The position numbers were made by a program, and so were the translations under genes. Below the pieces are notes generated by a model. The model worked only from the letters and a program-made list of their open reading frames with translations, was not told the origin of the DNA and did no database searches. From Patescibacteria group bacterium (GTDB lineage Bacteria; Patescibacteriota; Microgenomatia; UBA8517), in contig JBBTZT010000003.1 of the NCBI GenBank assembly GCA_038061225.1, positions 60,977-111,091 of the forward strand: a DNA stretch of 50,115 nucleotides, in the 5' to 3' direction. How positions within the stretch are numbered: the stretch's first letter is position 1; each line of letters begins with the position of its first letter. Shown here piece after piece: positions 14,469 through 31,301 of the stretch.

Positions 14469-14486
14469 ATGTTAATATTATACAGC

Positions 14487-16136
14487 ATGAAATGGAATAT
14501 ATTAGATAATTCACTAGTCACTAGTCACAAATCACTAATCACTGTTTTATTAAAAAATAGAAAACTTAATACAAAAAAAGAAATAGATGATTTTTTAGAC
14601 CCCAAAAACCCTAGTGAGATAGAACTAAGAGAATTAAAAATTACGAAATCATCAGTTCAAAGAATTGTAAAAAGACTTAAAATTGCAAAAGAAAAAAAAG
14701 AAAAGATAGTAGTTTTTGGTGATTACGATTGTGACGGAATATGTGCTACTGCTATTCTTTGGGAAACTCTTTATAAATTAGGTTTTGACGCTATGCCTTA
14801 TATTCCTGATAGATTTGAAGAGGGATATGGAATCAAGACTTCTAGCTTTGTAAATACGAAACTCAAAAGTCTTAATCCGAAATTAATTATAACCGTTGAT
14901 AATGGTATTGTTGCTTACGATGCAATTAAAGAAGCTAAAAAAAGAAAGATTGATTTAATAGTTGTCGATCATCACACAAAAGGCGATAAACAGCTTAAAG
15001 CTTATGGCATATTGCATAGTACTATGGTTTGTGGATCAGCACTTGCTTGGTTTTTAGCTAACAAGGTCAGACCTTTAAATATTGCATCAAAAAGGTCTGA
15101 CCTTAATAGTGGTTTAGACCTTGTTACTATTGGAACCATCGCTGATCAAATGCCACTTTTGGGGATTAATAGATCACTTGTTAGATATGGCTTACCAGAA
15201 CTTGCAAAAACAAAAAGAGTAGGGCTTCAATTAATGTTTAAGGATTTAAAATTAGATAGCGTTGGTACGTATGAAGTTGGATATTTAATTGCACCAAGAA
15301 TTAATGCAATGGGACGATTAGATAGTGCCACTGACTCTTTAAGATTTTTATGTACCAAAGATTCCAAAAAAGCAAAAGATTTAAATAAACTTTTAAACGA
15401 CACAAATAGCAAAAGACAAAAAATTGTTGATGAAGTTTTAATTAAAGCCATAGAAAAAGTTAATGAAGATAGTGTCAATACTGATAAAATAATAGTAATT
15501 TCTGGAAATTATCATGAAGGAGTTATTGGGCTTGCGTCAGGTAAAATAACTGAAAAATTTAATAGACCATCAATAGTTTTATCTGAAAATAAAGAAATAT
15601 CAAAAGCTTCTGCCAGATCTATTATTGGTTTTAACATAATAGAAGCAATTAAAAAGACGGGGTTAATAATTGAAGGTGGAGGACATCCAATGGCAGCAGG
15701 TTTTTCAATTGAAACTACAAAAATATCCGAATTCAGGGCAAAAATTAATAAAATTGGGGATAAAAACTTAAGTGAAGAAATTTTGACTAAAAAACTTTTA
15801 ATTGATTTAAAAATAAATTTTAATCTAATTAATCAAGAACTTGTAGATGAAATAAAAAAATTTGACCCAACAGGGCAAGGAAATTATTCACCAGTTTTTG
15901 TGAGTAAAAACGTGGAAGTTAAAGAAGCCAAAATAATTGGACAAGAAGGAAAACATTTAAAATTAAAACTCTCACAAAATGAAATTGTCTTCGACGCAAT
16001 TGCGTTTGGTTTTGCTAATGACCAAAAGTTAAATGCTAATGGTGTTGTTAGCGTTGCCTATACAATTGAAGAAAATGTTTGGAACAATAAATCCTCGATA
16101 CAATTAAAAATAAAAGATATTCACTTGTTCGACTAA
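14487..16136 (+). CDS. recJ: ssDNA exonuclease RecJ
   Basis: GDYDCDG, PDRFEEGYG, TVDNG, DHH, GTIAD, PRINAMGR, SARS, GGHPMAAG. Confidence 0.97.
   Translation: MKWNILDNSLVTSHKSLITVLLKNRKLNTKKEIDDFLDPKNPSEIELRELKITKSSVQRIVKRLKIAKEKKEKIVVFGDYDCDGICATAILWETLYKLGFDAMPYIPDRFEEGYGIKTSSFVNTKLKSLNPKLIITVDNGIVAYDAIKEAKKRKIDLIVVDHHTKGDKQLKAYGILHSTMVCGSALAWFLANKVRPLNIASKRSDLNSGLDLVTIGTIADQMPLLGINRSLVRYGLPELAKTKRVGLQLMFKDLKLDSVGTYEVGYLIAPRINAMGRLDSATDSLRFLCTKDSKKAKDLNKLLNDTNSKRQKIVDEVLIKAIEKVNEDSVNTDKIIVISGNYHEGVIGLASGKITEKFNRPSIVLSENKEISKASARSIIGFNIIEAIKKTGLIIEGGGHPMAAGFSIETTKISEFRAKINKIGDKNLSEEILTKKLLIDLKINFNLINQELVDEIKKFDPTGQGNYSPVFVSKNVEVKEAKIIGQEGKHLKLKLSQNEIVFDAIAFGFANDQKLNANGVVSVAYTIEENVWNNKSSIQLKIKDIHLFD
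14511..14545. repeat. Heptamer tandem repeat (TCACTAG-like x5) in the recJ 5' end
   Basis: tcactag tcactag tcacaaa tcactaa tcactgt. Confidence 0.8.
15063..15104. repeat. REP-like double palindrome, copy 2 (inside recJ)
   Basis: aaggtcagacctt (15063-15075), 16-nt spacer, aaggtctgacctt (15092-15104). Confidence 0.88.
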
Positions 16137-16184
16137 TTCCAATTATATTGGTTTGATTAGCCGAACAAGCTTAAAGATGTTTAA

Positions 16185-16382
16185 TTATTTTCCACCCTTT
16201 TTTAATAAGATGTCTATTTGGTTGATTGTTGGAGTAGCAATAATAATATATTTTTTATTATTTTTTCTTTCATGCTTATTGCAACAATCAATGCATCTAG
16301 CGGATGTAACATATTTTGGTACTGAAAATTTATTTTTACACCCACCCTTACATTCTGTGCAGTCGCATTTGATGATATGCAT
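16185..16382 (-). CDS. 65-aa Cys-rich hypothetical protein
   Basis: MHIIKCDCTECKGGC...RCIDCCNKH; AAGGAG SD a few nt upstream of ATG 16382. Confidence 0.65.
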   Translation of the reverse strand: MHIIKCDCTECKGGCKNKFSVPKYVTSARCIDCCNKHERKNNKKYIIIATPTINQIDILLKKGGK

Positions 16383-16492
16383 GACATTCTCCTTTTTGAA
16401 AAATTTTTTAAATACAAAAAACGCATTTGTTTTTGTATTCACATTTTTTTTCAAAAATTATGTCAAAGTACACATGTCCCGTCCAGAGGGCG

Positions 16493-16521
16493 AAAAAAAA
16501 CCTCTTTGCTTAAAGAGGTTT
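16493..16521 (-). terminator. Intrinsic terminator of a leader/attenuator
   Basis: Minus strand AAACCUCUUU-AAGC-AAAGAGGUUU continuing into a U8 tract. Confidence 0.8.
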
Positions 16522-16550
16522 GTCAAAAATAAGTCAACAAGACAAACCTC

Positions 16551-16598
16551 TTAGCTAAAGAGATTAATAATTGTCTTGACTGAACTATAAAATTTCAT
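16551..16598 (-). CDS. Putative leader peptide MKFYSSVKTIINLFS
   Basis: 15-codon ORF between a sigma70 promoter and terminator/antiterminator stems. Confidence 0.55.
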   Translation of the reverse strand: MKFYSSVKTIINLFS

Positions 16599-16609
16599 AT
16601 ATAGTAAGA

Positions 16610-16638
16610 AGTTTAGAAAAAGTTATACATATTGTCAA
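16610..16638 (-). promoter_or_regulatory. Sigma70 promoter for the leader and Cys-rich gene
   Basis: TTGACA (16638-16633), 17 nt, TAAACT (16615-16610). Confidence 0.7.
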
Positions 16639-16666
16639 TACTTAATATTGAAGTTAGAATACATAT

Positions 16667-18052
16667 ATGCAAAGAACTTTGGTTAGTGAAACGACATCAA
16701 AAATTGGAGAAATATTAAACCTTCAAGGATGGGTAAATACAATTCGCGATCATGGAAAAATAACTTTTATAGATCTTCGTGATAGAACCGGATTTATACA
16801 ATGTGTGGGCAAAGATTTAGAAAAAGTCACAGTTGAAAGTGTAGTTGAAATAAAAGGTAAGGTTGTTGAAAGACCTGAAAAATTAATAAACCCTAACATT
16901 GAAACAGGAAAGGTAGAACTTCAAATTGAAGAATTAAAAATAATTTCATTAGCATCAGAACTTCCAATGCCAATTGATACAGATGGTTATGATATTGATG
17001 AAAATGTAAGAAACAAGTTTCGATACCTTGATTTAAGAAGACCTAGAATGAATAAAAATATTAGGATTAGATCTAAAGTTACACAATTTTTAAGAAACTA
17101 TTTACACAAACTCGAATTCGTGGAAATTGAAACTCCAATATTGACCAAAACCACTCCAGAGGGAGCAAGAGACTTTTTGGTTCCATCAAGATTACAACAA
17201 GGAAAATTCTATGCTCTTCCACAATCTCCTCAGCAATATAAACAGCTATTAATGGTTGCAGGAATGGAAAGATACTTTCAGTTTGCTAAGTGTTTTAGAG
17301 ATGAAGATCCAAGAAGTGACAGAGCCTATGGTGAATTTACACAGCTTGATATGGAAATGTCTTTCGTAGAACAAAATGATATTTTAGATTTAACTGAAAA
17401 GATGTTTACAAAATTAGTCACTGAAATTTTTCCAGAAAAACGAATTCAAAACTCTCCATGGCCGAAAATTTCACATAAAGATGCTATAGCGCAATATGGA
17501 AATGACAAACCAGATTTAAGGAGGAATAAAAATGATCCAAATGAATTAGCTTTCTGTTGGATTGTTGATTTTCCACTTTTTACTGAACAATCAAAGGATG
17601 ATTTTTTTTATGGATCAGGTAGTGCAAAATGGGCACCATCTCATCACATGTTTACTTCTCCTCACCCTGACGACTTAAAACTTCTGGAAACTGATCCAGG
17701 CAAAGTACGTGGTCTGCAACATGATATGGTTTTAAATGGTCTTGAAGTTGGTGGTGGAAGTATTAGGATAAGCGATCCAAAAGTACAAGAAAAAATATTT
17801 AAACTAATTGGCTTTTCAGAAAAACAAAGAAATCAATTTGATCATATATTAACTGCCTTTTCCTACGGCGTTCCACCACATGGAGGAATTGCACCAGGTT
17901 TAGACAGATTTATGATGGCAATTTTAGCTGAGCCTTCAGTTCGTGAAGTAATGGCTTATCCAACCTCATCATCTGGTCAGACATCAGCTTTAGAGGCTCC
18001 AAGCGTTGCTTCAGACGATCAGTTAAAAGAACTTGGAATTAAAGTAAAATGA
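16667..18052 (+). CDS. aspS: Aspartate-tRNA ligase, bacterial type, short (GAD insertion absent)
   Basis: RDHG..FIDLRD, RYLDLRR, TPEGARDFLVPSR, ALPQSPQQYKQLLM, CFRDED, PPHGGIAPGLDR. Confidence 0.96.
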   Translation: MQRTLVSETTSKIGEILNLQGWVNTIRDHGKITFIDLRDRTGFIQCVGKDLEKVTVESVVEIKGKVVERPEKLINPNIETGKVELQIEELKIISLASELPMPIDTDGYDIDENVRNKFRYLDLRRPRMNKNIRIRSKVTQFLRNYLHKLEFVEIETPILTKTTPEGARDFLVPSRLQQGKFYALPQSPQQYKQLLMVAGMERYFQFAKCFRDEDPRSDRAYGEFTQLDMEMSFVEQNDILDLTEKMFTKLVTEIFPEKRIQNSPWPKISHKDAIAQYGNDKPDLRRNKNDPNELAFCWIVDFPLFTEQSKDDFFYGSGSAKWAPSHHMFTSPHPDDLKLLETDPGKVRGLQHDMVLNGLEVGGGSIRISDPKVQEKIFKLIGFSEKQRNQFDHILTAFSYGVPPHGGIAPGLDRFMMAILAEPSVREVMAYPTSSSGQTSALEAPSVASDDQLKELGIKVK

Positions 18053-30679: not shown

Positions 30680-30708
30680 TTGACAAGATGTAATATTGGA
30701 GTTATGAT
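30680..30708 (+). promoter_or_regulatory. Sigma70 promoter of the greA leader
   Basis: TTGACA (30680-30685), 17 nt, TATGAT (30703-30708). Confidence 0.8.
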
Positions 30709-30720
30709 GGATACCTAATT

Positions 30721-30774
30721 ATGAATATTTTTTCCAACAAATATATTAAAGTCAGCCTTATTAAGGCTATTTGA
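30721..30774 (+). CDS. Putative leader peptide MNIFSNKYIKVSLIKAI
   Basis: 17-codon ORF between the promoter and terminator upstream of greA. Confidence 0.55.
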   Translation: MNIFSNKYIKVSLIKAI

Positions 30775-30797
30775 TTTGTTGGAAGAATTATTTATTA

Positions 30798-30832
30798 AAT
30801 CTCTTCCAAAATAAAGGAGAGATTATTTTTTT
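30798..30832 (+). terminator. Intrinsic terminator in the greA leader
   Basis: aatctcttcc / ggagagatt stem (one bulge, 8-nt loop) followed by A and T7. Confidence 0.65.
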
Positions 30833-30839
30833 GTTAAAT

Positions 30840-31301
30840 ATGAATAAAACAATACAACTTACAAACAAAGGTTTAGAGGCTCTGAAAAAAGAGCTTGAGC
30901 TTTTGGTGAATAAAAAAAGACCAGCTTTGGTTGATAGGCTATCTAATGCTCGTTCTCAGGGAGATTTATCTGAAAATTCAGATTATCAAAACGCAAAAGA
31001 AGAATTGGAATTTTTGGAAGGAAGAATAGAAGAACTCCAGTTAGTAATTAAAAATGCAAAAGTAGTTAAAGATACTGATAATGGAAATAACGTTGGTGTT
31101 GGTACAAAAGTTACCGTTCGTGTTAATGGAGTTAAAAACACTTTTGAAATAGTTGGTGAGTGGGAAGCAGATATGACAAATAAAAAAATTAGTCATGCTT
31201 CACCATTAGGATCAGCTTTGGTTGGTAAAAAAGTTGGTGAAAAATTTGAAGTAGAAGCTCCTGTAGGCAAGATATTATATGAAGTGGTTGCTATAGACTA
31301 A
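30840..31301 (+). CDS. greA: Transcription elongation factor GreA
   Basis: LT-x-x-G-x-x-x-LKKEL, GDLSENSDY-x-x-AKEE, IS-x-x-SPLGSALVGK. Confidence 0.97.
   Translation: MNKTIQLTNKGLEALKKELELLVNKKRPALVDRLSNARSQGDLSENSDYQNAKEELEFLEGRIEELQLVIKNAKVVKDTDNGNNVGVGTKVTVRVNGVKNTFEIVGEWEADMTNKKISHASPLGSALVGKKVGEKFEVEAPVGKILYEVVAID

Follow-up and report, generated by a model that had tools for sequence, protein, structure and literature searches.

Attenuation of transcription by a leader peptide is a textbook mechanism. In the trpL, hisL, thrL, pheL, leuL and ilv leaders, a promoter-proximal uORF of 15-17 codons overlaps a helix designated 1:2, an alternative 2:3 pairing serves as antiterminator, a 3:4 hairpin followed by a U-tract serves as terminator, and the position of the ribosome decides which of them is formed. 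A comparable alternation is known from ermC, in which segments 1:2 and 3:4 alternate with 2:3 and the gene under control has its ribosome-binding site in the 3′ arm of the final hairpin. A stalled uORF ribosome is also reported to relieve premature termination at bmrB-bmrCD of B. subtilis, mef/mel and toiL-topAI, where the uORF is without amino-acid specificity and the regulated genes encode drug efflux or toxin-antitoxin functions of cultured bacteria and respond to known inducers (PMC4191407, PMC4335068, PMC12121999). Naville and Gautheret count greA among the genes most often attenuated, describe the leader peptides known at that time as coming from Proteobacteria and Actinobacteria, and present those of Firmicutes as their own finding; their passages on greA describe antiterminator structures and mention no leader peptide (PMC2965389).

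The element analyzed in this study lies on the minus strand of a 50,115-nt stretch of DNA from a Patescibacteria group bacterium, referred to here as the window. We consider positions 16638-16493 to be, in all likelihood, the promoter and 5′ leader of a unit of small ORFs, most likely acting as a ribosome-dependent (leader-peptide) transcription attenuator. Its parts and neighbours are as follows.

14469 to 16136, plus strand: recJ, the convergent neighbour of the leader
16185 to 16382, minus strand: downstream ORF of 65 aa, Cys-rich, presumed to be regulated, with AAGGAG 7 nt before its ATG
16493 to 16521, minus strand: intrinsic terminator AAACCUCUUU-AAGC-AAAGAGGUUU, with a hairpin of 10 pairs at 16521-16498 and U8 ending at 16493
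16513 to 16524, minus strand: candidate antiterminator 3′ arm GACAAACCUCUU, which is segment 3 and overlaps the 5′ arm of the terminator
16538 to 16545, minus strand: segment 2, UUGUCUUG, the 3′ strand of P1, its first five bases shared with the antiterminator
16541 to 16552, minus strand: candidate antiterminator 5′ arm AAGAGGUUUGUC, with perfect 12-bp pairing to 16524-16513
16546 to 16564, minus strand: cap hairpin AUCUCUU-UAGCU-AAGAGGU of 7 bp, with arms 16564-16558 and 16552-16546
16551 to 16598, minus strand: uORF MKFYSSVKTIINLFS, 15 codons and the stop codon TAA at 16553-16551
16571 to 16578, minus strand: segment 1, CAAGACAA, the 5′ strand of P1 in the growing-transcript fold, uORF codons 7-10
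16610 to 16615, minus strand: -10 hexamer TAAACT, separated by a 17-nt spacer from TTGACA
16633 to 16638, minus strand: -35 hexamer TTGACA of the leader promoter
16667 to 18052, plus strand: aspS, the divergent neighbour of the leader
30840 to 31298: greA, preceded by a promoter, the 17-codon uORF MNIFSNKYIKVSLIKAI, P1 with cap, and a terminator

The leader promoter, TTGACA-17-TAAACT, agrees with the consensus at 10 of 12 positions. The uORF ATG at 16598 follows 11 nt past the -10 hexamer, and the transcript would start near 16604, about 5 nt 5′ of the uORF. The uORF stop codon sits in the loop and 3′ arm of the cap hairpin, and the intrinsic terminator is located between the uORF and the downstream gene; in 2 kb, four terminator-like sites were counted where 0.7 are expected. 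In the growing-transcript fold helix 1:2, here called P1, is a continuous 8-bp pairing of CAAGACAA with UUGUCUUG plus a short lower stem. It overlaps the uORF and is exclusive with the antiterminator, for which the support is moderate, and the antiterminator is in turn exclusive with the terminator. The first-pass annotation of this DNA had assigned the promoter, the uORF, the cap, the 12-bp antiterminator and the terminator with its U8 to these same positions, and each of them was found there. The helix 1:2 that it proposed was found to pair as well, except that the UUG bulge drawn within it is superfluous, the continuous P1 needing none. The -35 hexamer of the leader also overlaps that of the divergent aspS promoter (TTGTCA, 16632-16637, plus strand).

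The locus thus has the 15-17-codon uORF, the overlapping helices and the ribosome-position logic in common with the classical amino-acid leaders, and among the sister elements described below there are some with runs of five Thr or five Phe codons. In contrast to the classical leaders, however, the aspS-linked leader has no regulatory codon run, its cargo consists of small ORFs rather than biosynthetic genes, no Rfam leader family matches it, and the host is of the Patescibacteria type. The alternation of 1:2 and 3:4 with 2:3 is shared with ermC. The difference is that in the window U8 follows the 3:4 hairpin, which makes this hairpin a terminator, and that the AAGGAG of the ORF lies about 105 nt further on. 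In three relatives (L144, L150 and L159) the next ATG follows the U-run by at most about 10 nt, so near that the 3′ arm of the terminator (AAGAGG or AGGAGG) would serve as the ribosome-binding site. With bmrB-bmrCD, mef/mel and toiL-topAI the aspS-linked leader shares a uORF without amino-acid specificity, and it differs from them in cargo and host, as it does from the greA leaders and GraL in not being beside greA. In a limited full-text collection, a literature search found no link of CPR bacteria, Patescibacteria or Microgenomates to leader peptides or attenuation.

The 122-nt RNA folds with -31.5 kcal/mol (z = -4.9), and none of 200 shuffled sequences was as stable. When the folding of the growing transcript was followed, P1 and the cap formed at 73-96 nt (-18.0 kcal/mol). 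Because they fold first, the 5′ arm of the antiterminator is already taken when segment 3 emerges. In the full-length RNA the terminated fold has -28.5 kcal/mol versus -29.9 kcal/mol for the antiterminated fold. Equilibrium thus slightly favours the antiterminated fold, so that termination relies on the order of folding, and since the two folds are close in energy, folding order and ribosome position can decide between them. When the stretch from -12 to +14 nt relative to the P site was masked as a ribosome footprint, the best fold was the antiterminator with the P site at any of codons 2-12 and the terminator with it at codons 13-15. From these models we infer that the leader switches and that the switching depends on the position of the ribosome.

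The mechanism that these folds suggest would run as follows. The RNA would begin about 5 nt ahead of the 15-codon uORF, segment 1 within the uORF would pair with segment 2, and the cap would form, so that AAGAGGUUUGUC is locked up; the terminator could then fold, and transcription would stop within the U-tract (16500-16493). Once a ribosome has arrived at the stop codon, it would cover the same stretch as P1 and the cap, again with termination as the predicted outcome. A ribosome delayed at about codons 2-12, on the other hand, would open P1 and the cap and leave AAGAGGUUUGUC unpaired, free to pair with GACAAACCUCUU; no terminator would form and the polymerase would continue into the downstream ORF or ORFs. 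The expected behaviour would be of the trp type, with termination when there is no ribosome or when the ribosome is at the stop codon, and read-through when it is stalled inside the uORF. What the leader would respond to is a matter of guesswork; our guess is a generally slowed elongation, caused either by the supply of charged tRNA at the conserved Lys, Ile and Asn codons 8-12 or by any translation stress. The only transcript seen in a metatranscriptome run was a single 216-nt contig located inside aspS (16962-17177).

Comparison with related genomes supports the attenuator reading. The host genome is of 0.62 Mb and the element is single-copy there; a search for a repeat family in that genome gave only the leader element itself as a match over the full length. 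When 551 nt were compared by BLAST with 40 relatives, seven genomes had a match to the element at 73-86% identity, and the sequence flanking it and downstream of it was mostly unmatched by that search, the flanks having diverged. In the resulting alignment of eight copies the promoter hexamers, the ATG, the helices and the terminator are in register. A covariance model built on P1, the cap and the terminator (R1) was positive in 26 of 125 genomes of the family, representing 16 of its 81 genera, with one copy in 25 of the 26. The alignment of 27 copies (A3) retains the promoter, the uORF frame, helix 1:2, the cap, the antiterminator and the terminator, and at 24 of these 27 loci the element is flanked upstream by a divergent class II AspRS gene and downstream by recJ in convergent orientation. 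A second model (R2), built from the 27 copies, found five further copies with the same aspS/recJ synteny, so that the element is present between divergent aspS and convergent recJ in at least 29 related genomes, all of one family. R1 and R2 had no match in two genomes of the same genus (G004 and G006). TTGACA was present in 18 of 26 relatives scanned, and in 22 of the 26 a promoter that agrees with the consensus at nine or more of 12 positions lies 6-27 nt before the ATG. Most copies of the uORF are without a Shine-Dalgarno sequence, and the 5′ UTR deduced from the promoters would be about 0-20 nt.

An Rfam search had been proposed in the first-pass annotation as a way to exclude known leaders. 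At the gathering scores of Rfam 15 the window matched a single tRNA only. A permissive scan of 16100-16750 (E up to 10) returned 16 weak matches, all far below their thresholds, among them Phe_leader, which scored 17.8 bits on the leader versus a gathering score of 55. No Rfam family explains the stems.

In the relatives the uORF has the properties expected of a coding sequence. Its ATG occupies the same columns in 25 of the 27 rows of A3. Between the ATG and the cap, frame 0 is free of stop codons in 26 of 27 rows versus four of 27 in each of the other two frames, and in a row-shuffled control a mean of 10.9 of the 27 rows were open, with a maximum of 19. The two odd rows are alignment slips, L169 having its ATG 5 nt upstream and L162 an in-frame GTG/TTG instead. 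The uORF has 15-17 codons in 25 of 27 copies, and in 25 of 27 the distance from the ATG to the arm of the cap is 41, 44 or 47 nt, which means that insertions at several different sites all come in threes. The stop codon (TAA in 18 copies, TAG in seven and TGA in one) is always in or at the loop of the cap. We take the preservation of this frame as evidence that the uORF is translated. The leader peptides end in ..K-x-[IV]-x-[IVF]-N-L-[FL]-x, but since the I-N-L-F/L end is encoded by the 5′ arm of the cap, conservation of the peptide is confounded with that of the RNA structure. In sister leaders, different reading frames run through this CCUC(C/U)U arm and give peptides that end in ..FTS or ..LLF. 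We do not take the N-L-F end as a sign of selection at the level of the peptide.

Covariation was assessed on A3. For P1, the cap and the terminator taken together, pairing extends to 90.9% of cells, and both-sided changes are seen in 15 of 25 pairs; none of 500 shuffles reached any of the five measures and slid controls gave at most 66%, although A3 was fitted to just this structure, which flatters all the figures for these three helices, including the both-sided changes in seven of eight P1 pairs and seven of ten terminator pairs, and the proportions of paired cells in the cap (95.1%) and the terminator (92.9%). The antiterminator was left out of the fitting. Its cells are paired at 88.2% versus 83.9% in shuffled alignments, a value reached by none of 500 shuffles, with slid controls at 62.8% or less, and 11 of its cells change on both sides, which two of 500 shuffles matched. 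Two of its five measures, both-sided pairs (reached in 78 of 500 shuffles) and pair types (46 of 500), are within the range of the shuffles. Contiguous antiterminator pairs average 7.3 with a copy's own partner versus 5.65 when partners are swapped between genomes.

It had been noted in the first-pass annotation that the arms form an imperfect direct repeat, so that duplication of a hairpin could have produced the pattern. This caveat is answered by segment 2, which tracks both of its partners. The antiterminator reaches past the repeated arms, and there it changes on both sides in other genomes: the pairing is UUUGUC/GACAAA here, UUUUACUU/AAGUAAAA in L158, UUGAAC/GUUCAA in L161 and L162, and UUAGCGC/GCGUUAA in L168. 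The tracking of segments 1 and 3 by segment 2 is, within these alignments, the signature of a switch. RNAalifold run on the first eight copies chose the extended antiterminator fold and reported no compensatory pairs, because the eight copies are too similar.

What follows the terminator is far more variable. The window's 65-aa ORF starts 110 nt from it, and this spacer contains a weak promoter-like site, TGGACG-17-CATAAT, with nine of 12 matches, so that a promoter of its own is possible for this ORF. The spacer also contains a stretch conserved with the related genome G002. The 65-aa ORF has no Pfam family at the cutoff, and a protein database search with a word index of limited reach matched only the ORF itself; the ORF in the corresponding position of G002 shares 34% identity with it (pairwise E 1e-5). 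At 21 of the 27 loci the U-run of the terminator is followed within 30 nt by the start of an ORF of 35 codons or more, which leaves no room for another promoter, so that such ORFs would be transcribed by read-through only; at three of these loci (L144, L150 and L159) the gap is no more than a nucleotide or two. With an ORF so near at 21 of 27 loci, the element is a 5′ leader rather than an sRNA gene standing by itself. The downstream ORFs differ among genomes, with one to three per locus and lengths of 47-118 aa. Of 38 such ORFs, 35 are without a Pfam family and one has a sub-threshold match; the other two, at loci not adjoining aspS, are a PRA-PH/sulfotransferase and GreA. Several short motifs recur among the downstream ORFs.

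The variability of the downstream ORFs, which differ and mostly lack a Pfam family, could also be explained if the element were a free-standing small gene, with a promoter, an RNA of about 110 nt (an sRNA and/or a 15-residue micropeptide) and its own terminator. The ORFs would then be cargo with no relation to it, and the alternative pairing would simply result from the likeness of two hairpins. In keeping with this, conservation is much stronger in the element than in the sequence behind it, this genome has many CCUCC/GGAGG terminators, and trans action of terminated leaders has been reported elsewhere, for the greA leader (PMC2965389) and for rnTrpL/peTrpL. We nevertheless regard a free-standing gene as unlikely: the ORFs that closely follow the terminator at 21 of 27 loci need read-through, and the proposal gives no reason for segment 2 to change with segments 1 and 3. 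A role in trans for the terminated RNA could coexist with attenuation. The two similar hairpins, cap and terminator, are also what would be expected of a chance arrangement or of a functionless relic of hairpin duplication, to which we assign a negligible probability; a z score of -4.9, the retention of the element in at least 16 genera while its flanks change, and the covariation all speak against it, and on the comparative sequence evidence this explanation is already refuted.

The remaining alternatives keep the attenuator and differ as to what drives it. One is that it specifically senses the supply of Asn-tRNA(Asn) (or of Ile- or Lys-tRNA) through the near-invariant Asn codon at position -4 from the stop, with a functional tie to the neighbouring AspRS, which is non-discriminating in several relatives and thus feeds Asn-tRNA synthesis. 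Most aspS-linked peptides keep Ile/Val/Phe-Asn at -5 and -4; a P site at codon 11, which places an empty A site at Asn, is the last in the masking model that still gives the full 12-bp antiterminator; linkage to aspS holds at 24 of 27 loci and at five more; the neighbour in G005 scores as an aspartate--tRNA(Asn) ligase; and sister leaders use runs of cognate codons, for example Thr5 before a ThrRS-like gene. This specificity is nonetheless improbable in our view. There is a single Asn codon and not a run, the AAC/AAU also begins the 5′ arm of the cap and is explicable by RNA structure, there are no conserved Asp codons, and the element is transcribed away from aspS, which it cannot attenuate. 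No single-codon run was seen in the aspS-linked leader peptides of the aligned copies and further loci inspected, so that sensing of one amino acid is not expected; a codon run marks an amino-acid-specific subclass of attenuators and not the mechanism itself. Another alternative is that a protein, a tRNA or a small molecule stabilises P1 and the cap, or the antiterminator, with the uORF being incidental or only tuning the response. It would account for the conservation of the P1-cap internal loop UUAUUAAU, which is unpaired, and for the absence of a Shine-Dalgarno sequence before most copies of the uORF. It does not explain why the ATG is conserved, why the frame stays open, why indels come in threes or why the stop codon keeps its place in the loop of the cap, and with no T-box, riboswitch or other Rfam match we consider a factor of this kind very improbable. 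A leader whose outcome depends on the ribosome remains our preferred reading.

The aspS-linked leader appears to have relatives. The first-pass annotation had described a leader of the same layout before the window's greA and had called the two sequences unrelated, which is only partly right: among the R1 matches in the window, the leader of greA takes third place (19.4 bits, E 0.12), and R1 also matches a greA leader in another genome, at locus L167, with E 5e-4. R2 (E up to 0.01) matched 53 of 124 other genomes of the family, often two to four times per genome, and none in two sister families (0 of 11 and 0 of 3 genomes). When 24 weaker R2 loci were inspected, 25 of 27 matches had a uORF; one had none and one was an opposite-strand echo. 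Outside the family, in a sample of the class, weak matches were found in five of 143 genomes, and three of the four such loci examined had a uORF and a terminator. Among the sister leaders, MHKIFVTTTTTFLFCEE contains five consecutive Thr codons and precedes a ThrRS-like gene (tRNA_SAD and a class II synthetase core), while others with five Phe codons or F-Y-F-Y-F precede proteins without a Pfam family. The genes behind the Phe-rich leaders had been considered as DAHP synthases, an assignment that was dropped since Pfam gives no families for them. Further sister leaders are rich in Ile, Val and Leu or belong to greA, and one each precedes an Asp/Glu racemase gene and an oxidoreductase gene.

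From the two elements in the window the first-pass annotation had suggested a genome-wide class of attenuators. Across the lineage such a class is borne out by R2 and the sister leaders, but in this genome only two members are recognised, the present element and the greA leader. The genome scan that the annotation had recommended for listing further members, with a promoter, a uORF and a terminator as the pattern, did recover the element, as the only candidate with a 12-bp antiterminator; the scan is noisy, missed greA, and does not yield a reliable count of the class. A variant of it lost the element, which was masked by a spurious 133-aa ORF on the plus strand. A loose pattern scan of contigs, giving 119 stretches, was set aside, models supporting six of the 80 loci that were searched.

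The mechanism of attenuation is old; what is new is the family of attenuators, the host group and the cargo. To our knowledge, gene regulation in bacteria of the candidate phyla radiation is almost unknown, because few of them can be grown. The attenuator family is a ready RNA family for annotation, it would provide evidence for coupled transcription and translation as a means of control in minimal cells, and it offers a handle on the variable cassette of small proteins beside aspS. Sister leaders such as the one with a Thr run before a ThrRS-like gene suggest that the part played by T-boxes in Firmicutes may here fall to leader peptides. More tentatively, and as a possibility that we rate below even, the Patescibacteria of the Microgenomates type, a lineage with reduced genomes, may possess a family of attenuators built on a single anti-SD-like/SD-like hairpin scaffold and placed before aminoacyl-tRNA synthetase genes, greA and other genes, of which the aspS-linked member would monitor the speed of translation in general (or detect some ligand through its nascent peptide) and control a rapidly changing cassette of small proteins. 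If this is true, the small proteins of the cassette might act in starvation or in the interaction of these episymbionts with their hosts.

The leader and aspS are transcribed divergently, and their promoters overlap, because the -35 elements of both make use of a single palindromic TTGACAA. In the window sequence the aspS ATG follows the -10 TAGAAT by 6 nt on the + strand, so placed that aspS looks leaderless. The leader is also covered on the opposite strand by a spurious ORF that could mislead gene callers, and which did hide the leader in our genome scan when an intergenic mask was applied.

Window 16632-16669, + strand: aspS promoter, with -35 TTGTCA at 16632-16637, a 17-nt spacer and -10 TAGAAT at 16655-16660.
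Window 16153-16554, + strand: spurious TTG-start ORF of 133 codons, running across the entire leader as well as the small ORF.

On the other side of the leader, 3′ of its terminator, the segment TTTGACATAATTTTTGAAAAAAAATG (window 16442-16468, - strand) is kept in only one of the compared genomes, G002. It contains a TTGACA, for which no convincing -10 was found. Across the 27 aligned copies of the element (L143-L169), the 0-700 nt downstream of it hold a cassette of 1-3 small ORFs of 47-118 aa, situated between the leader and recJ. This cassette varies from genome to genome, and its ORFs, which belong to no Pfam family, share recurring short motifs that are combined differently among loci; examples of these motifs follow.

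Cassette motif: ..PPAGLP.sFW..LGIGK
Cassette motif: ..KHQTPPQVR.GNW
Cassette motif: ..EKEKPDGE..
Cys-rich cassette motif: C..CGF...CPRY type
Cys-rich cassette motif: CxxC...CPKK type

The AspRS of the window (16667-18052, + strand; 461 aa) is of the bacterial type, NF001750, and seems to lack the insertion domain, since the NF001750 match is split into two stretches. The AspRS of G005, a genome of the same genus (L010:193-1524, - strand), is non-discriminating and of the archaeal type, NF003483; over their N-terminal ~50 residues the two are very similar. Of the 24 syntenic loci, 13 have a neighbouring protein with only 29-37% identity to the window AspRS.

Terminators in the source genome, G000, often have a CCUCC-type, anti-SD-like 5′ arm and a GGAGG-type, SD-like 3′ arm (for example, contig C5:2180-2205, contig C4:1815-1844 and window 16493-16521), and in relatives an ATG often stands immediately 3′ of the terminator U-run. 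Such terminators may have a dual use as terminator and ribosome-binding site. A further promoter-terminator unit, at the extreme end of its contig and with no uORF noticed in it, may be a small RNA gene.

G000 C4:1700-1844, outside the window, + strand: TTGACA-17-TATAGT, followed by ~85 nt that contain both a hairpin and a strong, GC-rich terminator.

The greA leader of the window folds at -34.3 kcal/mol (z = -6.65), with a 10-bp P1, UUCCAACAAA:UUUGUUGGAA, and uORF-bearing greA leaders are also present in G100, G087 and G088.

Window 30681-30835, + strand: greA leader, with TTGACA-17-TATGAT, uORF MNIFSNKYIKVSLIKAI, P1, cap hairpin and terminator.

Among the sister leaders, weaker covariance-model matches in relatives, several are rich in particular codons. 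The leaders at L180, L186 and L191 are Ile/Val/Leu-rich, and Phe/Tyr-rich ones precede proteins without a Pfam family. The Thr leader of L176 has the same hairpin scaffold as the aspS-linked element.

L187:208-331, L190:1471-1593, L189:1392-1522, L188 and L194:915-1038: Phe/Tyr-rich leaders, ending in ..FFFFFTS, ..FYFYFTS or similar.
L176:1122-2599 (G053), + strand: Thr leader with five consecutive Thr codons, peptide MHKIFVTTTTTFLFCEE, and ThrRS-like gene.

Directly 3′ of this Thr5 leader lies the ThrRS-like gene (tRNA_SAD plus class II core). In this arrangement an aminoacyl-tRNA synthetase would be controlled through a leader peptide, a task that falls to T-boxes in Firmicutes.
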